A stretch of 56,716 bases of DNA from an uncultured Halobacteriales archaeon (lineage in GTDB: Archaea > Thermoplasmatota > E2 > JACPAO01): NCBI GenBank assembly GCA_964408365.1, contig CAYOZB010000002.1:1-56716 (forward strand), in the 5' to 3' direction. Each line of letters begins with the position of its first letter. The first letter of the stretch is position 1. The translations under genes were made by a program, and so were the position numbers. The notes under the pieces are model-generated. The model did not search any database, had not been told where the DNA came from, and saw only the letters and a program-made list of their open reading frames with translations. Positions 12,982 through 56,716 of this stretch are shown here, piece by piece.

Positions 12982-14070
12982 TCACGCGCCGGGCGCTTTG
13001 TGCACTTCCAACCAGAAGTGGTAATCCCCGTCCATGTAGACCGGCGAGTCGGTGGATTCTCCGCGCCAGTTGACGGCGACCTGCCAACCGGTCTGCGGCG
13101 CGAACGGGCTGTCCCACATCTCGGGATCGATCGGGATCCGCCACGCGAACCGTCCTTCTTGGAGACCAGGATCGGACACGGTGGGCGGCATGGCGCTCAC
13201 GTTCCACTCGGGCGAATCGAGGTTCGCTCCGCGGAAGAACAATGAGGGACGGTAGTGGAGTTGGCGCGAGGTGCTCGAATTGTAGAGCAGTTCGACGTGG
13301 AGTTCCGCGACGTCGCGCGACGGGACGTGTTTCAAGCCGGGTTGGTCGGGCGGCGTGGAACCGACGAGCGGGGGCCCCGAAGTGCCGGTGCCGGACGTTT
13401 CGGTGCGAGGTTCCCCGGGTCCGACCCGGGCATCGTAGAGGTCGCCGCGTTGGTCGAAGATCCGGACGACGCGACCGTCTTCCCAGCGGTCGTCGTAAGC
13501 GATCAGATCGGGCACGACCCCGTCCATCTTGACGATCTCGAGCCGCAACGTGTCGACCATGACGGCCACTTTTTCGGTGGACAACGAGAAGGTCCAGCGG
13601 GACCGGGGATCGGGTGCCCAGTCGTTCATCTCTTCGTCGACGCGGATGGTCGTCGACGCGGCGGTCAAGGGAACATTCCAGCCTGCACCGTTGGCTCCTC
13701 GCAGACTCAAGACGACGTCCGAGGGGGAACCGTCGGCGTTGCGGATCTCGTGCGTGAAGAGAAGGAACTCCGTCCCGGGCAGGATGGTGCGGCCGACGGG
13801 GACTTGGAGGGTGAGCGGGAACGTGGGCAGCACGTTCACGTTGTTGTACATGAAAATGAATTTCGACGACGCCCCGTCCCATTGGTCGTCCATCACGAGG
13901 AACGAGGGCGGATCGAAGTTGGGGAACACCAACGGGGTCCGGGGGGACATGCGGATCGCGTCGGACGTGTCCGTCGTGGGGTCATATGGCCACAAGACGG
14001 AGACGACGAGGAAGATCCCGACGAGGAACAGCAACTTGGAAGGGCGTCGCACTAGGGGAGTCCCTTGCAT
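12982..14070 (-). CDS. N-terminally membrane-anchored extracytoplasmic protein, no recognised domain
   Basis: ATG at 14070 gives MQGTPLVRRPSKLLFLVGIFLVVSVLWPY (signal anchor). 362 aa. Its stop abuts the uvrC stop (TGATCA 12979-12984). Confidence 0.5.
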   Translation of the reverse strand: MQGTPLVRRPSKLLFLVGIFLVVSVLWPYDPTTDTSDAIRMSPRTPLVFPNFDPPSFLVMDDQWDGASSKFIFMYNNVNVLPTFPLTLQVPVGRTILPGTEFLLFTHEIRNADGSPSDVVLSLRGANGAGWNVPLTAASTTIRVDEEMNDWAPDPRSRWTFSLSTEKVAVMVDTLRLEIVKMDGVVPDLIAYDDRWEDGRVVRIFDQRGDLYDARVGPGEPRTETSGTGTSGPPLVGSTPPDQPGLKHVPSRDVAELHVELLYNSSTSRQLHYRPSLFFRGANLDSPEWNVSAMPPTVSDPGLQEGRFAWRIPIDPEMWDSPFAPQTGWQVAVNWRGESTDSPVYMDGDYHFWLEVHKAPGA

Positions 14071-14128
14071 GCGGATGGTTAGCAAGGAGATTAGGTTTGT
14101 CGTCAATTTGTCGCTGCTTTCGCGACAC

Positions 14129-15763
14129 TTACAAGACCAGTTCAAACCCGATCGTGGGGGCTCCGAGCTCGAACGCCGTGATTACATCGGGTCGCAGTTC
14201 GCCGAACCAGCCGATTTCACGGCCATTGGCGTCGCGCAACGCGGCGCTTCGGCCCTCGTTGAACCCCGGGGCGGTCTTGGCGACGAACGTAGCGGTCATT
14301 CCGGCGTCGCGAAGGAACGTTTCGACGATGCCTTTGCATTCCGCGAAGCCGGCGTTCGCGCTGATGCGGCAACCCGCGACGCGCAACTCGTTCTTGGCGG
14401 ATACAGGGTCGGAGACGACGAGGCCGCTTTCGAAGATGGATTGGGGCAGTTCGCGTTGTTTGTTCGCGCGCAGGATCGACAAGAGGCTCGGCATGAGTCG
14501 GGGACGGAGGATGGCTTGCTCCAACGTGATCGGGTTCGCAATCTCAACCACGGGCGTCTCCTCGGCGGACATGCGTTCGAACACGTCGGCCTTCGATGTG
14601 ACGTTCAACGTCATGACCTCAGTGAACCCGAGTCCGAGGAGGATCGTGCGCGCGCGGCGGGTTTTCTTGGCGCGGGGCAAAACGCCGCCAAACAAGGCGC
14701 GTTCGGGCAACCGTGGTTCGAACCGTTCGAAGCCGTACCCGATCCCCATGTCCTCGACGAGATCGTCCGGGTGGAGGATGTCGATGCGGTACGCGGGGCT
14801 CGACACTTTCAGTTTTCCGCCGGGCTCGGCGACGACGTCGTGGCCCATGCGTCCGAGGTAGGTGCGCGCGGCTTCCTCGTCCGCTTCCAAACCGAGGACG
14901 TGCTTGGCGCGTGAGAGCCGGATCACGGTCTGGATGGGCGTCAGGTCCGGTGTGCGGATGCGTTTCTCTCCGCGGACGACTTCCATCGACTCGATCTTGC
15001 CGCCGCGTTCCGAGAGACTCGTGACGACGATGGCGAGGATCGCCATGACGGCGCGTTCGTCGGTGCCGGTCACATCGACGATGACGTCCTTGGTGCGGGT
15101 CGTGAGCGCCGTGAGTTCGCCGTTGATGACCGGAGGAAGGGAGAGGACCTTTCCGTCGGCGTCGACGATGAGCGGGACTTTTTCCATGCCCTCCAAGAGC
15201 GGGGCGTAGATGCGGCCCTTCTCGTGACGCTCGAAGATCTCATTCGGCGTCAATGCCTCGGTCATGCCGAGGGGCACGAAGTTGACTTCCTCGCGTCCGA
15301 CGGCTTTGTAGGTGAACGGACCGCGGACCGGAGCAGCGTCGTGGATGCCGATCGCGACCTTGCGTCGCTTCCGGCCCGGGCCGACCGTGAGTCGTTCCTG
15401 GAGTTCGATGAGCGCGGCCAAGCGTTTGTCGTCGATGCTCAAACCGCGCACACGAGCAAACCCGATGACGGGACGCACCTTGGTGACGCTCGGGTCGACG
15501 TTCACGACGTCGTTGCTCGGGTGGACATCGAACTTCGGCAAACCGGGGTTGACGTCGAAGAAGGCGCGGCACGCCCGCGCGAGTCCTTCGATCGATAAGA
15601 GGTCGGGTCGGTTGGGGAAAAATTCGAAGAGATGCAGGCCGTCGTCGTCGATGCCGTCGTAGGCGCCGCCCATCATGGGGACCCGCGCAACAAGTTCCTC
15701 CGCGGGGATGCGCCGACCGATGAGTCCGACGAGTTCTTCGTACTCGGCGGCCAAGACCGGCAT
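14129..15763 (-). CDS. pheT: phenylalanyl-tRNA synthetase beta subunit, archaeal type
   Basis: 544 aa. MPVLAAEYEELVGLIGR...FFPNRPDLLSIEGLARA and B3_4/B5-like central regions. Confidence 0.9.
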   Translation of the reverse strand: MPVLAAEYEELVGLIGRRIPAEELVARVPMMGGAYDGIDDDGLHLFEFFPNRPDLLSIEGLARACRAFFDVNPGLPKFDVHPSNDVVNVDPSVTKVRPVIGFARVRGLSIDDKRLAALIELQERLTVGPGRKRRKVAIGIHDAAPVRGPFTYKAVGREEVNFVPLGMTEALTPNEIFERHEKGRIYAPLLEGMEKVPLIVDADGKVLSLPPVINGELTALTTRTKDVIVDVTGTDERAVMAILAIVVTSLSERGGKIESMEVVRGEKRIRTPDLTPIQTVIRLSRAKHVLGLEADEEAARTYLGRMGHDVVAEPGGKLKVSSPAYRIDILHPDDLVEDMGIGYGFERFEPRLPERALFGGVLPRAKKTRRARTILLGLGFTEVMTLNVTSKADVFERMSAEETPVVEIANPITLEQAILRPRLMPSLLSILRANKQRELPQSIFESGLVVSDPVSAKNELRVAGCRISANAGFAECKGIVETFLRDAGMTATFVAKTAPGFNEGRSAALRDANGREIGWFGELRPDVITAFELGAPTIGFELVL

Positions 15764-15792
15764 CGGGGCGCGAAAATCGGGCCACTATTAGA

Positions 15793-15802
15793 AATTATAT
15801 AC
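15793..15802 (-). promoter_or_regulatory. TATA-like box ~30-39 nt upstream of the pheT ATG (leaderless-type spacing)
   Basis: AAATTATATA is the only AT-rich block in the 117-nt divergent spacer 15764-15880. Confidence 0.35.
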
Positions 15803-15880
15803 CCCCCGCGTCGATATTGGGAGTCGTCGCGTGCTCGTGGGTTTCCCGTCCGCTCTTTTTCTCGTGGGTTCGAGCTTTCC

Positions 15881-16528
15881 ATGAATCGGTACGGTTCTGA
15901 CTTTCCCGAGCCTCCATGGACGTACGCGCCGAAGGAAGTCGACACGTGGCTGACCTCCGTCGCCCAAGGCGCGAAAGTCCAGAAAATGGACGCGTTCAAG
16001 AACGAGAAGGACCGCACGTTGGAGAACGTCGAGATCGTCCTGGACGTCGACTCGGTCAAGACGAAGATCAAGCCCAGCACTTTCTTCATGACGTGGCTTC
16101 GCGACTTGACGGGCCGCGTCAAGTTTGAACAACATTTCGAGGTCGCCGCCGCGGCGGAGCTCGTCGTGCGGGCCCTCGCGAAGGCCCGGTACCATTCCAT
16201 CACCAAGATCGCCGTCGACGGGAAGGTCGAATACAACAAGCCCGACCACCCGAAGGACGTGCGCGGCACCATCGAACTGTTGGCCGAAGCGAGTCACCGC
16301 GCGACCCGGTGCGAAGCCGTGCAGATCGAGGCGATCGACGACGAGGTCGGCGACACGACGGCCCTCGTGACCGTCAAACGCATCCTCAAGAAAGGCGAGC
16401 ACGCCATCGGAGTGAAGTTCAACGGCTCCGTCGTCGAGGAAGACTTCCGCACATTCCTCAGCTTCCTGTCCCAGAACCTCAACGCGACCTTCGTGTACCA
16501 GAACAGCGCGGCCGCCCCGGCACCGTAG
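15881..16528 (+). CDS. hypothetical cytoplasmic protein (215 aa)
   Basis: ATG at 15881 (MNRYGSDFPEPPW). Protein-like composition and GC-rich third positions. The upstream part of ORF 15632.. overlaps pheT and is discounted. Confidence 0.5.
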   Translation: MNRYGSDFPEPPWTYAPKEVDTWLTSVAQGAKVQKMDAFKNEKDRTLENVEIVLDVDSVKTKIKPSTFFMTWLRDLTGRVKFEQHFEVAAAAELVVRALAKARYHSITKIAVDGKVEYNKPDHPKDVRGTIELLAEASHRATRCEAVQIEAIDDEVGDTTALVTVKRILKKGEHAIGVKFNGSVVEEDFRTFLSFLSQNLNATFVYQNSAAAPAP

Positions 16529-16563
16529 GGCTTTAACTTCGCCCCTCGGGTTCGACGCGTCCA

Positions 16564-17730
16564 ATGCCTGATTCGGCCCCGACCGGACTCTACAAGCTCG
16601 CTCCCAGCGAGCGCGTCCGATTGGTCGCCAAATGGGCCGCCCTGACGAAAGAAGAGACGCGGCTCCTGCGCTCCTCCTTCGCCACCAATAGCGCGCTCGA
16701 CGCCGACACCGCCGATGGCATGATCGAGAACGTCGTCGGCACATTCTCCCTTCCCATGGGCATCGCGACGAATTTCCGCATCAACGGCACGGACGTGCTC
16801 GTGCCGATGGTGATCGAAGAACCCTCCGTCGTGGCGGCCGCATCGAACGCCGCGAAGATCGCTCTCGTGCGCGGCGGGTTCAAGGCACGCGCAAGCGAAC
16901 CCATCATGATCGGCCAAATCCATCTCGAAGGGGTGAAGGACTCCGCCGCGGCGGCCGAGGAGATCATCCGACGAAAACTGGACGTGCTTCGCGCTGCACG
17001 CGACGGTACCTCGAGCCTCGAGCGACGCGGCCTCGGCGCCGTCGACTTGGAAGTCCGGGTGCTGCGCGACGGCAAGACCTCCGTCCTCATCGTCCACCTC
17101 CTCGTCGACGTCGGCGACGCGATGGGAGCCAACGCGGTCAACACGCGCTGCGAACGCGCCGCCAAGTTCTTGGAACGTCTCACTGGAGGAAAGGCGCGAC
17201 TGCGCATCCTTTCGAACCTCGCCGATCGCCGCCTCGCGATGGCCGAAGCCACCTTCGCCGCGGACCAACTCGGCGGCGCGAAGACCGTCGACCACATCGT
17301 CGCCGCGTACAAGATCGCCGAGATGGACCCGTACCGTTGCGCCACGCACAACAAGGGAATCATGAACGGGATCGACGCCGTCGCCCTCGCCACGGGCAAC
17401 GATTGGCGCGCAATCGAAGCGGGAGCCCATTCCTACGCGGCGAAATCGGGTCGCTACGAAAGTCTCACGCGGTTCCACAAGAACAAGGACGGCGACCTCG
17501 TCGGCCAGATCGAACTCCCCATGTCGGTCGGCATCGTGGGAGGTTCCACCCAGGTCAACCCCATGGCCAAGTTGGCATTGAAGATCCTTCGCGTCCAATC
17601 CGCCCGCGAACTTGCCCAAATCGTCGCCTGCGTCGGCTTGGCCCAGAACCTCGCCGCGCTGCTCGCCCTCTCGACGGAGGGCATCCAGGCGGGTCACATG
17701 CGTTTGCACCAGAGGATTTCGAGGACCTGA
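16564..17730 (+). CDS. hmgA: hydroxymethylglutaryl-CoA reductase, short soluble (class II-like) form
   Basis: ENVVGTFSLPMGIATNF, IEEPSVVAAASN, DAMGANAVN, and GHMRLH near the C-terminus. 388 aa with no membrane domain. Confidence 0.9.
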   Translation: MPDSAPTGLYKLAPSERVRLVAKWAALTKEETRLLRSSFATNSALDADTADGMIENVVGTFSLPMGIATNFRINGTDVLVPMVIEEPSVVAAASNAAKIALVRGGFKARASEPIMIGQIHLEGVKDSAAAAEEIIRRKLDVLRAARDGTSSLERRGLGAVDLEVRVLRDGKTSVLIVHLLVDVGDAMGANAVNTRCERAAKFLERLTGGKARLRILSNLADRRLAMAEATFAADQLGGAKTVDHIVAAYKIAEMDPYRCATHNKGIMNGIDAVALATGNDWRAIEAGAHSYAAKSGRYESLTRFHKNKDGDLVGQIELPMSVGIVGGSTQVNPMAKLALKILRVQSARELAQIVACVGLAQNLAALLALSTEGIQAGHMRLHQRISRT

Positions 17731-17855
17731 GTCCCATCCGGTCAAGCGTCGACCGCGTTGGACCCTTCCCGGCATGGAAACAGTAGGACCAGCCGTACTT
17801 GACCCGGCGACGACATGTGCTAAATACCAGAGCCGGAGAATTCGGGCCGATCGGC

Positions 17856-18731
17856 ATGCGGGCACTGGCATTAATGGTGGTATTGGGCGTCGTATTCTCG
17901 GGCTGCGTCGCCAGCGACGCATCAGGTGACCCGAAAGCGGACTCCGTCGACCCGTCCGTCGTCGCACCGCCGAGTGACACCGAAGGCCAGATCCGCGGCA
18001 CCATCACCGACGATTCCCTCGCCCCGATCGCGGGAGCCCAGATCGGAATCCTCAACTCCGACCCACAAGTCGTCGTCTCGACCAACGCCGCCGGCCAATT
18101 CGCGATGGTGGGCCTCCTCCCGGGCACCTACGCGGTCGCAGCCCAATCCCTCGGTCACGAGAGCGCAACCCGCTCCGTCGAGGTTGCAGCCGGAGAAGCC
18201 ACCGAGGTCAACTTTGTACTCACCCCGGTCGCCATCGCCAGCGAAGCCCGCTACCAGACACTCATCGGGGAGGGGTACTTCGCCTGCGGCGCATACCTCG
18301 TCGTCACTTCGTGGGGCAACCTCCACGCGTGCGTCTTCGACGAACACAAACCTCGCTTCGTCTTCGAAGTCGACCGGACGGATCTGAAAGGAATCATGCA
18401 GGAAGTCGTCTGGACACAATCCTCCGGCCTGACCTCGCAGGAACTCGCGGTCCGCCTCCAGTACGGCGAACCCGTCTGCGATCCCTTCTGCTCTGAGGCC
18501 GACATGTACGCCGACGAAACCGGCTCCAGCCCCGTCCGCATCTACACGGACATGGACGGCGAGCTCGATGACAAGGGCGATGCCGCCGTTCACAAGCTCT
18601 CCTCGCTCACTTTCCCTGATGGCGACGAGACCCCAGTCCTGGTCTTCCAACAACGCATGACCCACTACGTGACCATGTTCTGGGGCGAAAAAAGCAACCT
18701 CGAAGACTTCTCGGCCATGCCGGACGCGTAA
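17856..18731 (+). CDS. secreted lipoprotein, CarboxypepD_reg-like domain plus PDA-tail domain (family member B)
   Basis: ATG at 17856 gives MRALALMVVLGVVFSGC (lipobox). GQIRGTITDDSLAPIAGAQIGIL...AAGQFAMVGLLPGTYAVAAQSLGH. Ends ...THYVTMFWGEKSNLEDFSAMPDA-stop. TAAATA box at 17821-17826. Confidence 0.7.
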   Translation: MRALALMVVLGVVFSGCVASDASGDPKADSVDPSVVAPPSDTEGQIRGTITDDSLAPIAGAQIGILNSDPQVVVSTNAAGQFAMVGLLPGTYAVAAQSLGHESATRSVEVAAGEATEVNFVLTPVAIASEARYQTLIGEGYFACGAYLVVTSWGNLHACVFDEHKPRFVFEVDRTDLKGIMQEVVWTQSSGLTSQELAVRLQYGEPVCDPFCSEADMYADETGSSPVRIYTDMDGELDDKGDAAVHKLSSLTFPDGDETPVLVFQQRMTHYVTMFWGEKSNLEDFSAMPDA

Positions 18732-18786
18732 ACCGCGGAATTAGTCGTAGACCAACCACGACCGATGCGAAGTTTCGGGCGTCGAC

Positions 18787-19251
18787 TCACTCGATGATGT
18801 TGCCCGCGACGTCCCGCACTTCCCGGCCACAATAGGCGCAGCGAAGGATCGGCGGATCCGGCTTCACGACCGCGAACCGGCTCTGGATCGGCTCCGACGA
18901 GTTAGTGATGCAACTCGGGTTCTCGCAGCGGACCAGGCCCACGACTTCTTTGGGAAGCTGGACGACCTGCTTCTTGTAGACCTCGAAGTTGCGGATGATG
19001 TTGATCGTCGCGCGTGGCGAGATCAATGCGATCTTGTTGACTTCCTTCGGATCGATCTCACGGTCTTCGATCTTCACGACGTCCTTCTGGGCGCCGTTCT
19101 TTCGTGTCGTCACGTTGATGGCGACGCTGATCACGGAGCGGGTTCCCTCCGTGGGCAAACCCATGATGCGCAGCACCTTGAGCGCGGCGCCCGGGGAGAT
19201 GTGGTCGATGACGGTGCCGTTCTTGATCGGCTGGACCTTGAGTTCCTTCAA
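18787..19251 (-). CDS. pyrI: aspartate carbamoyltransferase regulatory subunit
   Basis: 154 aa. LKVQPIKNGTVIDHI. Zn-site cysteines CENPSCITN ... RCAYCGRE. 4-nt overlap with pyrB. Confidence 0.9.
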   Translation of the reverse strand: MKELKVQPIKNGTVIDHISPGAALKVLRIMGLPTEGTRSVISVAINVTTRKNGAQKDVVKIEDREIDPKEVNKIALISPRATINIIRNFEVYKKQVVQLPKEVVGLVRCENPSCITNSSEPIQSRFAVVKPDPPILRCAYCGREVRDVAGNIIE

Positions 19252-20180
19252 ATCTTCCCCTCCAAGACCGCGCGAAGGATCGCCATGCGCACGGGCACCC
19301 CGTTGGCGGCCTGTTGGAAATACCGCGCGTTCGGGCTCTTGTCGACCTCAGGGTGGATCTCATCCACGCGCGGCAAGGGATGCATGACGATGAGGTTCTT
19401 CTTGCCCTTCGTGAGCAACTGGTTCGTGATCCGGTACGTGCCCGCGACTTTGCGGTACTCCTCCGGGTCACCGAACCGCTCCGCCTGGATCCGGGTCACG
19501 TAGAGCACGTCGGCCTCTTCGAGGGCTTGGCCGAGGTCGCTTGTCACGTCGACGGTGGCGCCTCGTGCGCGGCACTCATCGAGCACTTCTTTCGGCATCG
19601 GAAGGCTGCTCGGCGCGACGAGGACGATGCGGCTCTTGTACTGCGCCAACGCCACGGCCAGAGAGTGGACGGTGCGGCCGAACTTGAGGTCGCCGCAGAG
19701 GACGATGGTGTTGCCGTCGATCCGTTTCTTCTCTTGTTGGATCGTGAATAGGTCGAGCAAGGTCTGGGTGGGGTGTTCGCCGGCTCCGTCCCCCGCGTTG
19801 ATCACGGGGTGGCTGGCGTACTCGGCCGCGAGGCGTGCCGCGCCTTCTTTCGGATGGCGCAGGACGATGACGTCGGCCAACCCGTCGGCGATGCGGATCG
19901 TGTCCGCCAAGGTCTCGCCTTTCTTGGAGCTGGAGGCAAGGGGGTCGCTGAACCCGACGGCGGCGCCGCCCATGCGTTGCATGGCGACCTCGAAACTCAA
20001 CCGTGTGCGGGTGGAGGGTTCGTAGAACAGCGTGCAGAGGACCCGGCCCTCGAGGTCGGTGTTCTTCTTTTTCCCTTGGACGATCGGGACCATCCTCTCC
20101 GCCGACGCGAGCAACGCATCGATCTCGGAGCGGTCAAAGTCGCGGATCGACACGACGTTGCGGCCGGCCCAGTCCCCCAT
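19248..20180 (-). CDS. pyrB: aspartate carbamoyltransferase catalytic subunit
   Basis: EPSTRTRLSFE, GEHPTQ, HPLPRV motifs. 310 aa. Confidence 0.95.
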   Translation of the reverse strand: MGDWAGRNVVSIRDFDRSEIDALLASAERMVPIVQGKKKNTDLEGRVLCTLFYEPSTRTRLSFEVAMQRMGGAAVGFSDPLASSSKKGETLADTIRIADGLADVIVLRHPKEGAARLAAEYASHPVINAGDGAGEHPTQTLLDLFTIQQEKKRIDGNTIVLCGDLKFGRTVHSLAVALAQYKSRIVLVAPSSLPMPKEVLDECRARGATVDVTSDLGQALEEADVLYVTRIQAERFGDPEEYRKVAGTYRITNQLLTKGKKNLIVMHPLPRVDEIHPEVDKSPNARYFQQAANGVPVRMAILRAVLEGKI

Positions 20181-48040: not shown

Positions 48041-49945
48041 TCAGGCCAATCCGAGTTCAGCGCGGCTTGTGCCGATCGCCAAGAGGAGTTCGTCGATGTG
48101 GGCAGAGTCTACGTCGGCCGAGCGCTCTTCGCCGCCCGGGTTCCAGGGTCCCCAGATGGCTTGGCGGACCTCGCTGTCGACGCTCGCCCATAGGTCTTCC
48201 GTCGCGCGGGCCGGGGCGGCCATGTCGCCGAGGGCGACCTTGATTGCGTCTTCGGCACTTGCGGCGTTGATGAGTCCGTATCCGGAATAGATGAACGAGG
48301 CCGGTCCGCCGGGGAGGCCGGCTGGGTTCGCGGTCGCCGCACTGCCGTCGGTCTTCGCGGTGATGAGAAGCGCTCGTTCGGCCTCGGCGCGCGTGAGTTT
48401 TCCGTCGCCCACGAGGCCCGACAGGGCGGGTCCTTCAGCGACGACGGCGCCGGGACGCGGACCTTCGGCGGTGTCTCCCAAGCGTTCGCGCGCGGTCATG
48501 ACGATGTGGGCGTACGCGCCCGCGACCACGGGCGTCGCGGCGCTCGTCCCGCTGAAGGTACGGATCGAGTTCATCGATTGGTGCGAAGCGCCTCGCCAGT
48601 TCACACCATAGGAGGTGACGTCGAACGGTCTGCCCGTGCCGACGGTGCGCGCGGAGTTCGATGCGTCGCTGGAGCCGATCGTAAGGATCCAGTCCGGGCC
48701 GGTCTGGGAATGAAGGTAGGTCAACGTGGGCGCGTCGAACGCGTTGAGCATACCGTTGCCGGCCGCGAACAGGACTTCTTGGCCCGCTTCGACGGCGTCG
48801 CGCGACGAGGAGGAATCATAGACGACCTCGGGGACGATGCCCGGGTCGGCGGAGCAGCCGAGGGAGGAGGCGGGGATGCAGAAGGTCCAGGAGTTGGAGA
48901 CGACGTCGATCCAGCTCTGTTCGAACGCCCACTCGAGGGCTTCGTCGCCCGGTCCCTCGATGATGACGATGAGACAGTCGGGGCAGGTGCCGACCGTGGC
49001 ACCCGCGGCGTCGGAGGCGGTCGCAGTGCCGTGCCCATCCTCATCGAGGATCGCAGTCGCCCCGTACTCGTTCATGGAGATCGCGCCAATGATGCGGGTA
49101 CCAGGGATCCAATACAAATCGCCCGTTTCGACGCTTGCCCAGGTGGCTTCGTCGCGCACCGTGGCGGCCTTGAAGGTCGGCGCATCCAAAGCGAGGCGCA
49201 GTTCCGACGCGGCCGGGGGGTACCCGTTGACGTACTGAGACGGGTGCGCGTCGAAGCGGTCATCTCGGAACTCGGAGTGGTACGGGTTGACGCCGCTGTC
49301 GATGATGGCAACGACGGCGAAGCTCTGGGAGGCGAGATCCGTGGGTTCGCCGATGTCGACGCCGATGGCGAGAAGGTGCTTCGCCTGCGAGATGCGGGCA
49401 CTGGAGCTTCCGCGCAACGAGACCTCATACACGGCTTCCGCGGCGTACGTGTGGGTCGGGGCGGATTCGCGGCTGGATTCTCCGTCGCCGAAGTCCCAAT
49501 GGTAGAGATCGACGACGGCGCCCTCGGGCGTGACGATGGGTTCAAAATCGACGGTACGGCCGGAGACGCTGTAGCGGAAGTCCAGGCGGAACTCGTCGGA
49601 GCCGCTGACGGAACCGATGGCGAGCGTCTGACGGGCCGAGTCGACGTTGCCCGCTTGGTCCTCGATGAGCAGTTTGATGTCGTAGGTCGTGGCGGCCTTG
49701 AACTCGTGGACGGGGTGTTGTTCGTCGCTAGTGTTGCCGTCACCGAAGTCCCAACGCCAAAGGGCGATGGAGCCGCTCGACGTGTCGGTGAACTGGATGG
49801 GTTCGCCGATCGCGGCAACGTCGGGCGTCATGGTGAACGACGCTTGGAGGTCGCCCGTGGGGGCCTGTTTGGGCCCGCCGCCTCCGCCCATGCAACCTGC
49901 AAGGAGGATGGTGAGGATGAGAAGGCTGGCCGGACGGGGACCCAC
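48041..49945 (-). CDS. subtilisin-like (S8) serine protease lipoprotein with two N-terminal PKD domains
   Basis: Lipobox LLILTILLAGC. PKD motifs WRWDFGDG and YHWDFGDG. Catalytic triad contexts AIIDSGVNPYH, DGHGTATAS, SGTSAATPVVAG. GTG start. Confidence 0.85.
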   Translation of the reverse strand: MGPRPASLLILTILLAGCMGGGGGPKQAPTGDLQASFTMTPDVAAIGEPIQFTDTSSGSIALWRWDFGDGNTSDEQHPVHEFKAATTYDIKLLIEDQAGNVDSARQTLAIGSVSGSDEFRLDFRYSVSGRTVDFEPIVTPEGAVVDLYHWDFGDGESSRESAPTHTYAAEAVYEVSLRGSSSARISQAKHLLAIGVDIGEPTDLASQSFAVVAIIDSGVNPYHSEFRDDRFDAHPSQYVNGYPPAASELRLALDAPTFKAATVRDEATWASVETGDLYWIPGTRIIGAISMNEYGATAILDEDGHGTATASDAAGATVGTCPDCLIVIIEGPGDEALEWAFEQSWIDVVSNSWTFCIPASSLGCSADPGIVPEVVYDSSSSRDAVEAGQEVLFAAGNGMLNAFDAPTLTYLHSQTGPDWILTIGSSDASNSARTVGTGRPFDVTSYGVNWRGASHQSMNSIRTFSGTSAATPVVAGAYAHIVMTARERLGDTAEGPRPGAVVAEGPALSGLVGDGKLTRAEAERALLITAKTDGSAATANPAGLPGGPASFIYSGYGLINAASAEDAIKVALGDMAAPARATEDLWASVDSEVRQAIWGPWNPGGEERSADVDSAHIDELLLAIGTSRAELGLA

Positions 49946-49999: not shown

Positions 50000-50422
50000 T
50001 CACTCCGGCAAGGGCACGCCCGGGCCCGTGGCCAGGTCCGCTTCCAGTCGCGCCCGCAACGCCGGATCGACGGGTTTCTTAGCGTTCTTTTCGTAGTCGA
50101 ACATGACGAGGACGGTCTCGGCCGTGGCGACGATCTCGCCGTCGATCGTGCGCAACGCGTAGTTAAGGGTGAAGCTGGTGTTGCCGATCTTGGTCGGCCA
50201 CACGTGGATGTCGAACACTTCGTCGTACACGAGGCCGCGAAGGTACCGGCAGTTTTGGGCGGCGACGATGATGTCGAGGTCCTTTGGACGCGTCTGGTTG
50301 CGGATCTTCATGTAATAGTGGCAGCGGGCGGTCTCCATGTAGGTGAAGTACGCCGCGTTGTTGACGTGTTCCATGACGTCGACGTCGCGGTACGAGACGC
50401 GCATGCGTTCCGAGTAGCTCAT
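50000..50422 (-). CDS. hot-dog fold acyl-CoA thioesterase (4HBT/YbgC-like)
   Basis: ATG at 50422. MSYSERMRVSYRDVDVMEHVNNAAYFTYME. 140 aa. Confidence 0.8.
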   Translation of the reverse strand: MSYSERMRVSYRDVDVMEHVNNAAYFTYMETARCHYYMKIRNQTRPKDLDIIVAAQNCRYLRGLVYDEVFDIHVWPTKIGNTSFTLNYALRTIDGEIVATAETVLVMFDYEKNAKKPVDPALRARLEADLATGPGVPLPE

Positions 50423-50475: not shown

Positions 50476-52710
50476 CTACTCGAACACGTACACCTGGATG
50501 TACACGGTGACGAGTTGTTTGAGTTCCGGGTGGTAGACGCTTGCGATGCGGGTCTGCACACCGTTGGCGGCGTTGAGCGGGATCGAGGGACCGTAGTCGA
50601 GGTAGAGGTTCCGGTAACTCAGGACGACGAGGTTGTGCATCAAGGCCAGGCCTTGGCACGCGGAGGTGAGCGGCGTGCCGCAGGATTGTGCTTGTTGGGC
50701 GGGGCTCTGCAACGCGAACGGTCGCCAGCCAGAGAGGATGACCTTGCCGGAGCCGAAGGAGCCGCCGTTGCTGATCCCGAGGACGTCATCGTCGCCTTGC
50801 GACACGACGTGGGAGAAGTACGCGTCGGATCCCGAATTGTAGTCCCAGTCGCTCAATGCGTTGAAGGTCGTGTAGTCGAGATCGTTAGGGACGTTCAGCG
50901 CTGGGTGGTCTGGGTCTGGCGTGTAGAGGCTGGCGCTGCCTCCGTCCAAGGCGGCGTGGAAGATCGGTTGCAGCCATTGGACGGATTGGCTCGTGCTTCC
51001 GAAGACGACCAAGGTGCCGCCGGCGTACACCCATTCACGGATGGTTCCCTTGGCGGCGTCGCTCGTCATCACGTTGTGGTCGACGTCGCTTCCGACGATG
51101 AGGGTCGTGTAGACTTCGAGCGTGGGTTCGCCTGCCGCGTTCTCAAGATAGTTCGGAAGATCGTTGTTCATTGCGCACTTGATGTCCGGGAACACGTCGC
51201 CGCGGTCGTGGATGGTCGGGCCCGTGATGTACGGCAGGTCGATGGGGGCATCGGGGTCGGCAAAGTCTGGGTCGTTGGAGCCTTTTTGGAACTGATGGAA
51301 CAATTGGTCGACGTATTCGGCTTCCGTGTACGTGGAAGCTGCTGGCACGAAGTCGCCGAGGCTGATGGTACATTCACTCGCAGTAGCGAGAATCTCGAAG
51401 TAAGCGGTACTTTGGCGAACTCCGGCGGCGATGGTCGGCACCCAGAGCTCGGCACGGAATCTGCCAAAACCAGCGTCCGGCGATCCATCCACGGGGCTCG
51501 CGTCCAGCCAAGTCTCCAGACTCTGACTGGGAGTCGGGTTCGGGATGTCCCGTGCGACGGTTTCCGTTCCGCCCGGGTCCTTGATGATTCGGATTTCGAC
51601 ATCGTCGCCATTGAAACTGGGGACCGCATTGCCCTGGCCGTCGTACGCGTCGTACTTGACGTTGGGCCACTTGTTGGATCCGCTGAACGGCAACGCGTAG
51701 TTCCGGCGGTCCATGCTCAACGTGGTGATCGGATCGTCCGTGTTGGTCGCATCCGACATGTCGCCCGTCATGGGCACCGTTCCCGTGCCGCCCGTCGGCA
51801 TCGGCCCGATGGCATCGCTGACACTGTAGGTGAACTGTGCCGGGTTCGTGCCCCAGTCCCAGTCGTCGACCCTTCGGATCGTTGCTGACACCGTCTGCGA
51901 ACATGCGGTGAAGTCGGGTGACGTGCAGCCGCCGTCGATCGGGAAGGAGTTGACCGTGAACGTGACAGGTTTCTTCTTCAGCAGGAAGGAGAAGTCGACC
52001 GAGAACCCAGACGTTACAGAGCCAGTGTTGGTGATGGCGACGGACACGGTCCCGAACTTGTCCGTTGGGTCCGTGGCCTCGTTGATCTCGAACGAGCCAA
52101 CCGTGGTGACCGTTGCACGCGTGACCGGCGACGAACCATCGACGTAGTTGCCGAGGTACAGGGGCCGGAGGTACTGGTCCTTGTAGCCCATGCCGAGGAT
52201 CTGCCGGACCGACGCCAAGACGGGTTCGCTGCGGATGTGGAAATCCAAGCCCTTGCCGGCAAGGCCGAGGCTTCGGTGCGCTTCGACGTAGTCGACGAAA
52301 TTGTTGGTCGGCGAAGCGGCGTGCGCGGCGTTGTTGATGTTGCTGAACTTGGCGTAGCTGAGATTGTTGTTGTGCCGTGGATCAGAAGGATTGTAATCGC
52401 ATCCTTCGTCGCCGAGGCCGAACCGTCCGAGGGGCTCGCCGGAGCCGTCGAGGAGGCCGACCCCTTCCGCCGTCATGACGGTGGCCGGAAGGCACGGGTC
52501 GGCGGTGTACCACCCGTCGCCTTTGTCGAAGATCTGGCCGGCGACGCTCATGGCCAGTTGGTGGAAGTTTGCCGCTTCTGCGGGAGTGGTGTTGGCTTCG
52601 CGTTCGATGCTGGATTCTACCACGTAGTAGAAGCTGACAGAAAAGAGAACGATTGCGATGATGAATCCAACCAGGGCGCTGACGCCATGGTCGTCATTGT
52701 GTTTGCGCAT
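50476..52710 (-). CDS. giant pilin-like protein with class III (prepilin) signal peptide (744 aa)
   Basis: MRKHNDDHG-VSALVGFIIAIVLFSVSFYYVV matches the archaeal pilin N-terminal pattern (charged, G, VS, ~20 hydrophobic residues). The rest has no domain recognisable by eye. Confidence 0.6.
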   Translation of the reverse strand: MRKHNDDHGVSALVGFIIAIVLFSVSFYYVVESSIEREANTTPAEAANFHQLAMSVAGQIFDKGDGWYTADPCLPATVMTAEGVGLLDGSGEPLGRFGLGDEGCDYNPSDPRHNNNLSYAKFSNINNAAHAASPTNNFVDYVEAHRSLGLAGKGLDFHIRSEPVLASVRQILGMGYKDQYLRPLYLGNYVDGSSPVTRATVTTVGSFEINEATDPTDKFGTVSVAITNTGSVTSGFSVDFSFLLKKKPVTFTVNSFPIDGGCTSPDFTACSQTVSATIRRVDDWDWGTNPAQFTYSVSDAIGPMPTGGTGTVPMTGDMSDATNTDDPITTLSMDRRNYALPFSGSNKWPNVKYDAYDGQGNAVPSFNGDDVEIRIIKDPGGTETVARDIPNPTPSQSLETWLDASPVDGSPDAGFGRFRAELWVPTIAAGVRQSTAYFEILATASECTISLGDFVPAASTYTEAEYVDQLFHQFQKGSNDPDFADPDAPIDLPYITGPTIHDRGDVFPDIKCAMNNDLPNYLENAAGEPTLEVYTTLIVGSDVDHNVMTSDAAKGTIREWVYAGGTLVVFGSTSQSVQWLQPIFHAALDGGSASLYTPDPDHPALNVPNDLDYTTFNALSDWDYNSGSDAYFSHVVSQGDDDVLGISNGGSFGSGKVILSGWRPFALQSPAQQAQSCGTPLTSACQGLALMHNLVVLSYRNLYLDYGPSIPLNAANGVQTRIASVYHPELKQLVTVYIQVYVFE

Positions 52711-52862
52711 CAGTCGGTTCCTACCCAGGGCGCGCTAGTCGTTGCTTCTGTTCCCGTAGTATTTAGGCGCCTGCCGATAGCAGTAAGTACCACTATTTCA
52801 GGGTCGCTCTAGAGGACCAGCGCCCTAAACCCCGGTTCTCCAGGCTTATAGCCGGCACCGAA

Positions 52863-53348
52863 TTAAGTGGGCGCGGCGCCGACGCAGTTGGTGTAGAATC
52901 GGACCTCTTCGATGATCGAAGCGTCTCCGTCGCTCAGGTAGAGTTGGACTTCGGTCAGCAATTCCAGGTTCGAAACGGCGGGAGCCTGATCCGTGATGAA
53001 CTCGGCCGAGCCGACCTGGACGACGGTCCCGTGAAAGCTCAGGCCGCGGTTCGATTCCAATTGGGTGATCGTCGCGAGCATCGTATCGACCCGGCCCTGC
53101 CAGTTCGTCAATCGGGTCGGGCACTGGATGACTCCAGCGTTGTCCGTGAGTTCGTCGTCCATGGCCTCGGCCAAACCGGTGCGAACAATGAGGAAATCCG
53201 TAAAGAGCGGGCTGGTGGCCTCGCGTCCGGCTTCTTGCCCGACCGTCGCTAGGAGGGCGGTCTGGGTGGAGAAGATGAGGTACGACATGACGAGGAGCAA
53301 TCCCGCCAGGAGGATCATCTGGCCGTGTTCGTCCCGCCTAGATGCCAT
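52863..53348 (-). CDS. pilin-like protein with class III signal peptide (161 aa)
   Basis: ATG at 53348 gives MASRRDEHG-QMILLAGLLLVMSYLIF. 11-nt overlap with the upstream gene. Confidence 0.55.
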   Translation of the reverse strand: MASRRDEHGQMILLAGLLLVMSYLIFSTQTALLATVGQEAGREATSPLFTDFLIVRTGLAEAMDDELTDNAGVIQCPTRLTNWQGRVDTMLATITQLESNRGLSFHGTVVQVGSAEFITDQAPAVSNLELLTEVQLYLSDGDASIIEEVRFYTNCVGAAPT

Positions 53349-54783
53349 ACCACACCACCAGTCGGATGTCATACACGTAGCGGGTCGTCGGGTTTCCCTT
53401 CGGGCTGAGGTGAATGTCGTACGCTTCGAGGCCGGAGGATTGGCCGTGTCCTTCGAAGTCCAGGTAGACCGGCTCTCCGAGGTCGATGTCGTTGAGGCCC
53501 CCCGCGTCCAGGTCGCCCCAGCGGACGGTCTCACTGGTGAAGGCGGACAGAAGCGTGGTCCCGAGGTCGGAGTCGCCCGCCGTTGCAATGCTTCCGAACG
53601 CGTAACTGCCGACGCGGGTGAGACGGCGATCCCCCTCGGAGACGACATTGTAGGGCGCCGTCATCGACAGGTACACGGCGTCCCCTTCCTCCAATTCGTT
53701 CGGGAACGTGCCGGTCTGGGTTGCGCGGACGAAGCCAGTCGTCACCGGCAGCAATGCAGTGGGTGTCGTCACATCCGTGTCTCCCGAGTCGACCCGGGTT
53801 CCAGCGGCGCATGGTTTGGTGAGCCGGCAGTTGGAATGGATGGTCAAGCGGAGGTCTCCTCGGGAAACGTCCGATCCGGCCGTCGTGAGGTCGAGATAGA
53901 GTGCGTCCTCCGCGCTGAAGCCAGCGGTCGCGACGTCAGCGTACTTGAGCCGCCCGCCGAAGGCTCCCGCGCTCACGAGACTCGTCGTGTTGTCGCGGTC
54001 CTTCGTGAGGATGGATGAGCCGGCACCGAAGATGCCCGGCGGGACGACGGTGAAGTAGGTGCAGTCCGTTGCCACCGCGCGGCAGACCTTGTAGGTGCCG
54101 TACACGATGTTTTCTGGGACCGTTTTCGTTCCGGCCGCGTTCGTGAACAGAGAAATCATCGTGTCTGGCGTCGGGGATTTTTCGTTCTCGACGCGGTTGA
54201 GCGGATCGTTGATGGATGAGACTTCGGCGGTCTTGAACCCGGTCGTCTCGTCGATCCGGATGATCATCGAGTCGTCGACCTCGGTCCCGAACTGATTCCA
54301 ATTGAACGTCATGAACAAGTGGCCGACCGACACGTCGAGCGCGGGTGGCACGAGGTCCTTCGGATGGATGGTCGTCGTCGAGACGCCGTTCGAATAGGAA
54401 AGAATGTACCGCGTGCCGGGCGGCAACGCCTGAACGAGATACTCCACGACCTCGCTTGTGCTCGGATCCGACGCGGTGGCGGGAGTATCCGGCGTTGTCG
54501 CCCCCTCGAATCCGAGCGCGAGACTCATCAGACGTTCCAATTCAGATCCAAACGGACACGGGCTTTCGTTGCAGTCGGAGCCTTGGGTCGGCGGCTTGGC
54601 CAGAAGCGCGACGAGCGTGTCATCGGCCAACCCCGCCAGTTCTGCTTGTTGGAACGTGGACGCCGACGTGGGGAGCCGGAACACGGAGGTGACGAACAAG
54701 ATGGTGAAGACCAGCACGCCCACGATGATGGCCTCGACGACATGCAATTGTGCGCGTTGGTCGCGTCGCCAGAGCCGCTTCAT
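53338..54783 (-). CDS. large pilin-like/TadE-like protein with class III-type N-terminus (481 aa)
   Basis: MKRLWRRDQRA-QLHVVEAIIVGVLVFTILFV. 4-nt overlap with the FlaJ/TadC gene. Confidence 0.55.
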   Translation of the reverse strand: MKRLWRRDQRAQLHVVEAIIVGVLVFTILFVTSVFRLPTSASTFQQAELAGLADDTLVALLAKPPTQGSDCNESPCPFGSELERLMSLALGFEGATTPDTPATASDPSTSEVVEYLVQALPPGTRYILSYSNGVSTTTIHPKDLVPPALDVSVGHLFMTFNWNQFGTEVDDSMIIRIDETTGFKTAEVSSINDPLNRVENEKSPTPDTMISLFTNAAGTKTVPENIVYGTYKVCRAVATDCTYFTVVPPGIFGAGSSILTKDRDNTTSLVSAGAFGGRLKYADVATAGFSAEDALYLDLTTAGSDVSRGDLRLTIHSNCRLTKPCAAGTRVDSGDTDVTTPTALLPVTTGFVRATQTGTFPNELEEGDAVYLSMTAPYNVVSEGDRRLTRVGSYAFGSIATAGDSDLGTTLLSAFTSETVRWGDLDAGGLNDIDLGEPVYLDFEGHGQSSGLEAYDIHLSPKGNPTTRYVYDIRLVVWYGI

Positions 54784-56716
54784 CCGATGAGCACCCGGAA
54801 GAAAAACCAGGACATGACAGTCATGATGACGGAGTGCTTGAGGCCGCTCAGCGGGTTTCCCTGCTGCATGATGCCGCTCACGAGGCCGCCGCCGATCCCT
54901 TGCACGATGGCCGCGTGGAAGAACACGGTCTTGAAGTCTTCCGGATCGAACTGTTGGATCGATGCGCCGGACACTTGGGCGCCAGTGTTGGCTCCGGCGG
55001 CTTCGTGGAACGCCGGCAGGAACTGGGCGGACAGGATGAAGACGACGACCAAGAACACCATGAATGCGATGTAGATGATGATCCCGTAGATCCCCATCTG
55101 GCGTTTTCGTTCCTCGACGATCTGTTTGATCTCACGCGCATCGTCAGAAGCGGCGGTCAAGATGTCGATGACGTTGCCTCCGGCGCGCGACGCTTCAACG
55201 ATGAGCGCGACGGTTCGTTCGATGAGCGGCGTCTGCACGCGACGGGAGAAACGCTGGAGCGCCTCGCTGAAGGAGACGCCCCACTCGACCTGCGCGTTCA
55301 TCTGTTTGATCTCGGGCGTGAGCGCGCCGTACACACCCTTCGATGCGCTTTGCAGGGCGCGGGGCAGGGTCATTCCCGCTCGTTCGGATTCGGCGAGGTC
55401 TCGAAGGAAGTCCGGGAACTTGTCGTCCATCGCGCGGATGCGCTTGAGACGGCGGCCGCGGTGCCAACCATAGGGCCCGACGCCGACGAGGAACGCGACG
55501 ATCAGCAGGTCGGTACCGTACTTTTCATGGAACGGCATCCGACCGAGAAGCGTCAAAAGGCCCATCACCGTGAAGAGGAAGCCGAAGAACCCGCTGAAGA
55601 TGAACATCACGCGGAGGTTGATCTGCGCGCGGCTCATGCGTTTCTTCGCGATGACTTCGCCCGTCGCCGCGCGGCGCTTCCGGCTTTCGATGTACCGGTG
55701 CTGGAAGTACCGCGTAAGCACGAGGCCTATCACGATGACGCCGACCAAGGCGTAGGTGACGATGATGAAGTTGAGGGATCGGTCGCTTTGTTCCGGGAGT
55801 TGTTTGGTCGCGACGCCCCCGAGCAGGAACATCGAGATGAGGACGAACGCCAGGCCGCCGAAGTACGCGTGAAGGGCCCGTTTCTGGATGTCGTCGCGCA
55901 CTTCCTTGTTCGCTCGTCGAGCGGCATCGATCTCACGGGTGACAAGCTGGGCGATCGCGGGGTACTTGAGAAGGACCTTGAAGGCGACGATCTGGAACAG
56001 GACACCGAGCGTGAGGATGTAGATCGCTTGCTCCGCCGTGATCTCGGCAAAGGGGCCCTGGTCGAGGATGCGGAAGCTCACGAGGAGCCCCAGCAGGGAG
56101 ATGACCGCGCCGGCCGCGAGGAGCGCCCATGAGATGGTCTTTTTCCAAGGCTTGAGGGTGTCTCGCGTATTGAAGCTCGTTCGGACGATGAGCAACATCG
56201 AACAGAACAGCAAGGTGAAGACGGCGAACAGGACATAGTTCGATGCGAACGCGACCGAGGCGTCCGACGTGCGGCTGATGAACCCGAGGAAGGCAAGGAG
56301 CGCTGCCGTCTCGAAGAACAGCATGAGGCCGAGGACGATCGTCGCGCCGACCGTCATGATGGTGAGGATCATGTCCTGTCGATACTTTCGCATGATCCGT
56401 TCGTCGAGGCTGCGTTTCTTGAGCTCGAAGTGGGCGGGTTCGAAGGCGAGGACGCCGCCCGTCAGCATCAGCGATGCGACGACGAGGACCGCGTGGATGA
56501 TGCTCGTGTCGAGTTGAATGAGGCCGAACCGGGCGAGCGGGACTACCGCCAGCAGAAGGAACGAGACGATGCCGACGGATTCGGTCAGGAACTGCAGGCC
56601 TTTGCTTTCCGTCACCGGTTTCGACGGCAAGGCCGTCTTTTCGGGGGCGGGCGCCGCCGGGATCCCGCCAGGACCAGCGGCCGCCGGCGGCACCGCGAGG
56701 GCGGTGGGCTTGCGAG
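54780..56716 (-). CDS. FlaJ/TadC/PilC-type (T2SS-F family) polytopic pilus-assembly membrane protein, possibly 5'-incomplete
   Basis: T2SSF-like segment DKFPDFLRDLAESERAGMTLPRALQ...GVSFSEALQRFSRRV...ASRAGG. Many TM spans. The frame stays open from the GTG at 56693 to the window edge. Confidence 0.75.
   Translation of the reverse strand, partial: RKPTALAVPPAAAGPGGIPAAPAPEKTALPSKPVTESKGLQFLTESVGIVSFLLLAVVPLARFGLIQLDTSIIHAVLVVASLMLTGGVLAFEPAHFELKKRSLDERIMRKYRQDMILTIMTVGATIVLGLMLFFETAALLAFLGFISRTSDASVAFASNYVLFAVFTLLFCSMLLIVRTSFNTRDTLKPWKKTISWALLAAGAVISLLGLLVSFRILDQGPFAEITAEQAIYILTLGVLFQIVAFKVLLKYPAIAQLVTREIDAARRANKEVRDDIQKRALHAYFGGLAFVLISMFLLGGVATKQLPEQSDRSLNFIIVTYALVGVIVIGLVLTRYFQHRYIESRKRRAATGEVIAKKRMSRAQINLRVMFIFSGFFGFLFTVMGLLTLLGRMPFHEKYGTDLLIVAFLVGVGPYGWHRGRRLKRIRAMDDKFPDFLRDLAESERAGMTLPRALQSASKGVYGALTPEIKQMNAQVEWGVSFSEALQRFSRRVQTPLIERTVALIVEASRAGGNVIDILTAASDDAREIKQIVEERKRQMGIYGIIIYIAFMVFLVVVFILSAQFLPAFHEAAGANTGAQVSGASIQQFDPEDFKTVFFHAAIVQGIGGGLVSGIMQQGNPLSGLKHSVIMTVMSWFFFRVLIG

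Follow-up and report, generated by a model that had tools for sequence, protein, structure and literature searches.

The last four genes of contig CAYOZB010000002.1 (assembly GCA_964408365.1), a 56,716-nt stretch from an uncultured archaeon that is here called the window, encode TadC2, a membrane protein of the T2SSF/FlaJ type, and three proteins with pilin-like N-termini: p481, p161 and p744. Our best explanation is that these genes belong to an operon of nine genes, carried by an uncultured member of the Thermoplasmatota, that encodes a type IV pilus-like filament; the three proteins would be pilins in minor or tip positions, and the two large ones would be modular. We put the probability of this explanation as a whole at about 0.65. 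That the locus encodes a type IV pilus-like system is very probable; that p481, p161 and p744 serve as pilin-like subunits in minor or tip positions, the two large ones displaying adhesive modules, is about an even call.

The explanation is built on gene content, synteny, domain homology and N-terminal architecture, which are observed directly. An earlier note, made from the DNA letters alone, had already described a type IV pilus-like (FlaJ/TadC) locus with pilin-like open reading frames (ORFs), and this view is supported by a T2SSF match, by the operon of related genomes and by the N-termini of the three proteins. The note's gene layout is also confirmed: a TadC-type gene runs from 54780 to past 56716, is coupled by overlaps of 4 and 11 nt to ORFs of 481 and 161 aa, and a 744-aa ORF follows at 50476-52710 after a gap of 152 nt. 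The features of the locus are as follows.

54780-56716, minus strand: TadC2, T2SSF/FlaJ-type membrane protein, 5'-truncated by the window end, stop at 54780
55032-55409, minus strand: cytoplasmic T2SSF domain within TadC2 (aa 429-554 if the GTG at 56693 is taken as the start)
53338-54783, minus strand: p481, pilin-like, 481 aa, with a 4-nt ATGA overlap with the TadC2 gene
53389-53958, minus strand: repeat region of p481, three copies of an acidic repeat of about 65 aa (aa ~276-465)
52863-53348, minus strand: p161, small pilin-like protein, 161 aa, with an 11-nt overlap with the p481 ORF
52711-52862, minus strand: intergenic gap of 152 nt between p161 and p744
50476-52710, minus strand: p744, large pilin-like protein, 744 aa, after the 152-nt gap
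51376-52164, minus strand: middle region of p744 (aa ~183-445), tandem Ig/FnIII-like β-sandwiches
50479-51213, minus strand: C-terminal α/β domain of p744 (aa ~500-744), weakly DUF4350-like

Platform protein and gene order in relatives

The T2SSF match expected at 54780-56716 was found (Pfam PF00482, E-value 1.1e-20, 74 bits against a cutoff of 25). Compared with the NCBIfam model of ArlJ, TadC2 aligns to positions 244-538 of 555, i.e., the C-terminal half, while TadC1, a 293-aa protein found in the relatives, aligns to the N-terminal half. The platform is therefore split, as in bacterial TadB/TadC. In front of the T2SSF domain, TadC2 carries an N-terminal extension of about 390 aa with nine transmembrane helices predicted by a transmembrane scan and a Pro/Ala-rich N-terminus. 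The extension has no family match in Pfam and, to our knowledge, no described equivalent. The frame is open through the last base of the window, with no stop 5' of the first GTG at 56693, where the ORF lister placed the start, and an ortholog on contig L002 of a relative, complete at 687 aa, shares 81% identity with TadC2 over its residues 38-687. As the alignment starts only at residue 38 of this ortholog, the gene clearly runs off the window.

There are about 100 TadC2 orthologs; wherever a source name is given, it is that of a Thermoplasmatota, Thermoplasmata or 'Euryarchaeota' metagenome-assembled genome (MAG). Given these names, the label 'Halobacteriales' carried by two of the relative MAGs is probably unreliable.

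The complete operon is seen in relatives, labelled L002-L009, which are contigs carrying all or part of the syntenic locus. Homologs of p744 are rare (14 clusters), and one of them lies on L002, a 60-kb contig that carries the whole locus. Here the nine genes are, in order, a KaiC-like ATPase, p379, p183, a PilB-type ATPase, TadC1, TadC2 and the orthologs of p481, p161 and p744. The ATPase is 680 aa long and contains T2SSE (2e-34) and PilB3_C domains. The protein p379 is a 379-aa pilin with a DUF7289 match (39 bits against 27) and a Pilin_N-type N-terminus, RG/VSPVVGTILIL, where the slash marks the putative cleavage site here and below. The other upstream pilin, p183 (~180 aa), matches DUF7266 with 28.7 bits against 27.6 once its start is corrected, and passes this threshold only when the upstream class III-type N-terminus is included.

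The same nine genes are present in the same order in L004 and L006 at 33-68% identity, and the operon is present in part in L005, L007 and L008. The PilB-type ATPase lies two genes upstream of TadC2 in L002, L004, L006, L007 and L008, and in L008 an A24 prepilin peptidase (Peptidase_A24 and Arc_PepC_II, with a weak FlaK match) is encoded directly 5' of the operon. The earlier note had proposed looking past 56716 for a secretion ATPase and a prepilin peptidase and surveying related genomes for the same synteny; the first is just upstream in the syntenic relatives, the second is found in one relative, and the survey recovered the nine-gene operon in L002, L004 and L006. Judged by synteny, the window genes are the distal third of this conserved operon. 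Within the 56.7-kb window itself, no second ATPase or platform gene was detected, and a tblastn search of it for an A24 peptidase homolog was likewise empty.

In L002, the database call for p183 (154 aa; 2410-2955) begins at an internal ATG. The real start is upstream and gives the N-terminus RRDQRG/VSEVIGYLLGFF. Start errors of this kind probably conceal pilin signals in the annotations of other MAGs as well.

The three pilin-like proteins

Each of p481, p161 and p744 has exactly one hydrophobic segment, within residues 9-31, and each starts with charged residues, then G/A, and then the hydrophobic helix. The N-termini are MKRLWRRDQRA/QLHVVEAIIVGVLVF in p481, MASRRDEHG/QMILLAGLLLVMSYLIF in p161 and MRKHNDDHG/VSALVGFIIAIVLFSVSFYYV in p744. 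The G/A at -1 is conserved across the orthologs of all three families, and the p481 family additionally has an invariant Q at +1 and a Glu at +6. Among the three window proteins, p481 alone complies with the strict FlaFind rule of a charged residue at -2 (R-A/Q-L). From this architecture we infer that the N-terminal signals may be cleaved. A class III-like regular expression run over all six frames of the window found no other convincing candidate; the pattern otherwise matches a lipoprotein-type signal and stretches within polytopic membrane proteins or cytoplasmic ones. Three such ORFs in a row behind a T2SSF gene are thus not a chance cluster.

The p481 family is characterised by an A/G-Q-x-x-V-x-E-A motif near the N-terminus and by a C-terminal strand, YDIRLVVWYGI. 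Searching its profile against 1.84 billion representatives gave 17 full-length orthologs, while profile positions ~240-460 match about 480 proteins in 2-8 stretches each, with E-values down to 1e-49. These matches are large surface proteins of roughly 250-4000 aa. The shared element is an acidic repeat of about 65 aa with the consensus F.D.nGDG....ePVYLD.d.sG.V..gDvRLs...GskV..gD.D, i.e., a DxDxxG loop followed by VYLD and GDxRLS, which by its sequence looks Ca-binding-like. No Pfam or NCBIfam model covers the repeat, and matches to EF-hand or dockerin are sub-threshold only. An unmodelled family is thereby exposed in hundreds of large surface proteins. Some of the proteins that bear it end in a PGF-CTERM-like or dockerin-like sequence.

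In other lineages, the orthologs that take the place of p481 in the operon are only 244-287 aa long and have no repeats. In L009, a distant Thermoplasmatota relative, a 1690-aa protein occupies this position. It has the N-terminal motif G-S-T-H-V-L-E-A-V and the C-terminal strand VQLTTWY, with FG-GAP/BNR (Ycf48-like) regions between them, and a 386-aa paralog adjoins it (13370-19599). Since proteins of 244 to 1690 aa share the same terminal motifs, p481 can be described as a pilin-like scaffold of small size that has received an insert specific to its lineage. The scaffold has some resemblance to DUF7262 and DUF7288, with scores for p481 of 20.2 and 14.6 bits against a threshold of 27, confined to the N-terminal ~60 residues. 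The sub-threshold DUF7262 match recurs in eight of the nine members of the p481 family.

It can be speculated that p481 is a lineage-wide 'cassette' minor pilin, in which a fixed N-domain and a C-terminal closing strand frame an insert that is swapped between lineages of the Thermoplasmatota: none in the 244-aa form, Ca-binding repeats in the 481-aa form, and FG-GAP/BNR propellers in the 1690-aa form. Together with p744, which would display Ig-like domains and a GATase1-like domain, this would make a programmable filament for adhesion or capture. We regard this extension as tentative, and clearly less secure than the assignment of the three proteins as minor or tip subunits. If it is true, the cassette filament would be an archaeal counterpart of the bacterial modular pilins and PilY1, on a split platform.

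The p744 family has 14 members at 36-100% identity. In the AlphaFold2 (AF2) model, a long N-terminal helix (aa 12-61) leads into a conserved N-domain that reaches to about aa 190, followed by the β-sandwiches (~183-445) and the α/β C-domain. A Foldseek search with the whole model returned Ig/FnIII sandwiches only (Factor XIII barrels, RbmA, ScpA Fn), as local matches with E ~5e-6 and a TM-score of ~0.1, and the family profile found nothing among PDB sequences. The C-domain has a sub-threshold match to DUF4350 (PF14258; 16.7 bits at aa 536-661 against a cutoff of 30.4), which recurs in 11 of the 14 family members with a best E-value of 2e-4, and its alternating β-α pattern in the model is compatible with DUF4350, a family that presumably belongs to the GATase1-like fold class. 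The Ig-like middle is absent from two paralogs, p464 (L008, 15752-17146) and p489 (L007, 9051-10520), which keep the N- and C-domains. These paralogs of 464-489 aa sit after a long p744 copy and indicate tandem duplication of a p744-type gene in two lineages; the L007 paralog contains an assembly gap (a run of X). In the earlier note, the two large proteins had no domain that could be named. It remains correct that neither passes the threshold of a curated family; the repeats of p481, and the Ig/FnIII sandwiches and weakly DUF4350-like domain of p744, can nevertheless now be named.

For p161, the ortholog alignment shows conserved G/A-Q-[MILV]-x-L-L and GQxxGRE motifs. The window protein has no match to DUF7261, while its orthologs reach 14-17 bits against a threshold of 27.

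We suggest the following mechanism. The five pilin-like proteins would insert in the membrane via the N-terminal helix, an A24 (FlaK/PibD-type) peptidase would trim them after the conserved G/A, and the PilB and TadC1/TadC2 machine would extract them into a filament. Within it, p481, p161 and p744 would most likely be minor (priming or tip) pilins and not the bulk subunit. Both p481 and p744 would be modular, with a conserved pilin-like core and a variable insert, consisting of three acidic Ca-binding-like repeats in p481 and of Ig-like sandwiches in p744, where the GATase1/DUF4350-like domain, probably non-catalytic, would be part of the core. The inserted modules could then be displayed on the filament for adhesion. 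This makes the locus a conserved, testable candidate for the attachment of the widespread uncultured Thermoplasmatota to particles or partners.

Relation to known systems and alternative explanations

Haloarchaeal plasmid loci (L011 and L012) were chosen for comparison as the best matches to the ATPase of the relatives. In Halobaculum halophilum and Haloferax mediterranei, five small genes follow PilB-PilC, and in the Halobaculum locus, where the five were scored, they correspond to DUF7287, DUF7288, DUF7261-like, DUF7266 and DUF7289. Aligned with hhalign, p379 matches DUF7289 with a probability of 94%. For p183, the probability is 58% against DUF7266 over ~95 residues and 68% against DUF7289 over the N-terminal ~37 residues only, and the best match of p161 is the haloarchaeal DUF7261-like gene (41%). 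The pattern is near-diagonal, as p379, p161, p481 and p744 each score highest against a different haloarchaeal family. Examples of the N-terminal helix alignments are RAQLHVVEAIIVG with RAQAHTLEGLIAG and SALVGFIIAIVLFSVSF with IDFVLGIVVFLFAFSFV. From these profile comparisons, the five pilin-like genes of the operon appear to map one-to-one onto the haloarchaeal DUF7287/7288/7261/7266/7289 set. Five haloarchaeal DUF families (7261, 7262/7288, 7266, 7287, 7289) would thus be linked to a second phylum. A literature search on these DUF names returned no papers.

Pilus systems of euryarchaeal clade 2 are equipped with a pilin set of their own and have minor pilins that measure 250-550 aa; they often contain two tadC genes, and KaiC ATPases are associated with them (Makarova, Koonin & Albers 2016, PMC4858521). 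PilB4/C4 probably assemble 'two relatively large pilins' (Pohlschroder & Esquivel 2015, PMC4371748). We take both the present locus and L011/L012 to be of this type, typified by the PilB4-C4 locus of Haloferax volcanii. Shared features are a PilB-type ATPase with PilB3_C and a T2SSF platform, five pilin-like genes including minor pilins of variable length and large pilins, the frequent presence of two tadC genes, and the association with a KaiC-family ATPase. However, in the operon described here the motor genes stand between two pilin genes upstream and three downstream, the C-half of the split platform bears the nine-helix extension, and the KaiC/ArlH-like gene is fixed at the operon head. 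Through the inserted repeats, the Ig-like domains and the DUF4350-like domain, p481 and p744 are 2.5 and 4 times the size of DUF7288 and DUF7287, and two of the five families alone (DUF7289 and DUF7266) reach Pfam thresholds. The lineage, Thermoplasmatota MAGs, was outside the 2016 census.

The claim of an 'undescribed subunit composition' in the earlier note does not survive this comparison. The relatives and the haloarchaeal loci show a known set, and both the five-gene pilin-like set and the large pilins are already catalogued (PMC4858521, PMC4371748). The machine type is likewise catalogued, and no new kind of machine is revealed. New and specific to the lineage are the Thermoplasmatota gene order, the split platform with its extension, a KaiC/ArlH-like gene at a fixed place, the growth of two pilin-like proteins by added modules and the unmodelled repeat family.

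Bacterial Tad/Flp systems also have a platform of two single-T2SSF-domain proteins, several pilin-like accessory proteins including a large one (TadE/TadF and the large TadG), and no retraction ATPase. The Tad system is reportedly of archaeal origin. The present operon differs from it in being without secretin, TadZ and TadD, and the Flp motif G/XXXXEY differs from the archaeal class III signal, the Glu at +6 of the p481 family being the position to compare. Membership among TadE/Flp proteins was rejected, as the TadE/TadF, Flp and TadG models gave no match in Pfam (E<=0.1) or NCBIfam.

In the modular pilins of Streptococcus sanguinis (PilB with vWA, PilC with lectin) and in the tip pseudopilin GspK, a functional module is either joined to a pilin module or inserted into it. 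The concept of an adhesive module in a pilin of low abundance or at the tip is the same here, but no sequence or structural relationship is apparent, and in the archaeal proteins the insert lies between the N-domain and the C-terminal strand and is swapped between lineages (244-1690 aa). A closer neighbour in taxonomy is the CdiP system of Cuniculiplasma divulgatum (Thermoplasmatales), an Aap-like system of the same phylum with a split platform (CdiPFa/CdiPFb), two ATPases and pilins ~500 kb away (PMC12448462). Compared by description only, the two-gene platform is common to both; neither a five-gene pilin-like set nor giant pilins are described for CdiP (PMC12448462).

Several observations weigh against minor or tip pilins of a filament. 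The locus is known from genes alone, and it is from these that we infer filament incorporation, the tip or adhesive role, signal cleavage and an internal promoter of p744. The ATPase, TadC1, the peptidase and the two upstream pilins are off this contig and are deduced from relatives. No Pfam or NCBIfam pilin model reaches its threshold for p481, p161 or p744, and the hhalign probabilities of p481 with DUF7288 and of p744 with DUF7287 are ~4% each, covering the N-terminal helix only (~20 residues). Both p161 and p744 have His at -2 and fail the strict FlaFind rule, although some of their close orthologs carry Arg or Asp there. The class III signature proposed in the earlier note therefore holds in its architecture for all three ORFs and under the strict rule only for p481. 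The AF2 models are of moderate quality, with a mean predicted local distance difference test (pLDDT) score of 68.5 for p481 and 70.5 for p744, and a fold search with the p481 model against the PDB gave nothing at E<=0.001. Finally, lengths of 481-744 aa are awkward for subunits of a helical filament, and such proteins could instead be anchored at the surface.

The last point leads to an arrangement like the Bas bindosome of Sulfolobus, with its sugar-binding proteins, in which the class III-signal proteins would be large functional surface proteins, binding or enzymatic, organised in the envelope by PilB/TadC. The sizes of p481 and p744 fit bindosome substrates better than pilins, the C-terminal α/β domain of p744 is weakly DUF4350-like, and close relatives encode a secreted S8/PKD protease directly after the operon. 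The ATPase and TadC1 of the relatives also have secondary NCBIfam matches to BasE and BasF, but these amount to 200 bits against a cutoff of 1000 and 46 against 1300, and archaellum or pilus models score higher. Pfam finds no solute-binding-protein or ABC-transporter domains in or beside the operon, each family of the five-gene set seems to have its counterpart in the haloarchaeal pilin-like set, and the inserts consist of repeats of the adhesin type and of Ig-like domains instead of ligand-binding folds. We therefore consider a bindosome-like role unlikely. It is slightly less likely still that the signal anchors stay uncleaved and that p481, p161 and p744 are accessory parts of the assembly machinery, comparable to ArlF/ArlG or PilN/PilO. 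Two of the proteins have His at -2, the genes are translationally coupled to the platform gene, and the operon of the relatives includes a KaiC/ArlH-like protein and an ArlI-like ATPase, all of which would suit such a stator. However, orthologs keep the G/A at -1 and often have R/K/D/E at -2, there are no matches to ArlF, ArlG or any archaellum accessory model, and the size range of 244-1690 aa with adhesin-type inserts suits displayed proteins better.

A divergent archaellum operon, serving motility, is essentially excluded. The motor does resemble that of the archaellum, in that the relatives' ATPase scores best in NCBIfam with FlaI, the KaiC-like protein has a weak match to ArlH/FlaH, and TadC1 and TadC2 align to ArlJ. 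Nevertheless, all of these scores are below the equivalog cutoffs (426 bits against 550 for the ATPase, 21 against 215 for the KaiC-like protein and 54 against 400 for the platform half). The N-terminus of the 379-aa pilin is of the Pilin_N/DUF7289 type, not that of an archaellin, and no operon protein matches archaellin or ArlC/D/E/F/G/X in Pfam or NCBIfam. The archaellum was rejected on these absent matches and sub-cutoff motor scores, which also uphold the statement of the earlier note that the locus is not an archaellum. A type IV pilus-like filament with modular minor or tip pilins remains the explanation that we prefer.

Intergenic gap, contig end and neighbouring genes

The 152-nt gap between p161 and p744 contains a short hairpin and T-run after p161, and a TAAATA box (GCGCCTAAATA) ~50 nt before the ATG of p744, followed by a purine-rich stretch, GGTAGGAAC, near the start. 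These elements are kept in the three closest genomes, conservation among the relatives being seen in L002 and L003 only. The gap is compatible with an internal archaeal promoter for p744, as a faint possibility suggested by its sequence. Two TATA-like blocks had been pointed out in it; GCCTAAATAC is conserved in close relatives and GGCTATAAGCC is not. A sigma-70 promoter and intrinsic-terminator scan was uninformative for an archaeon.

An exact-sequence look-up found one other assembly only, which ends at the same point as the window. Independent assemblies of the population and of close relatives break within the TadC2 gene (window 56600-56716, L001 1-120, L003 1-650 and a contig from JGI), and the window ends in the Pro/Ala-rich low-complexity N-terminal region of TadC2. 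The breaks point to variation between strains, or to a repeat just upstream on which short-read assembly fails.

Scanning the window for Rfam families and tRNAs gave no match. Antisense ORFs that reach 460 aa run opposite the real genes (54750-56132 and 50515-51888 on the plus strand, and others); these are Arg/Asp/Gly-rich artefacts of GC content rather than genes. Judged by eye, no acid shift is apparent in the cytoplasmic proteins of the window.

Two minus-strand genes, at 48041-49945 and 50000-50422, lie directly downstream of p744. They encode a lipobox protein of 634 aa that carries two PKD domains and an S8 subtilase domain, and a thioesterase of the 4HBT type. The thioesterase/protease pair is syntenic with the operon in L002, L003, L005 and, with insertions, L004, and not in L007, L008 and L009. 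In L004, two opposite-strand genes for large secreted proteins are located between the p744 ortholog and the thioesterase (12132-14885); one protein has 404 aa and a C-terminal transmembrane anchor, and the other has ~500 aa and is rich in Asp-repeat motifs.

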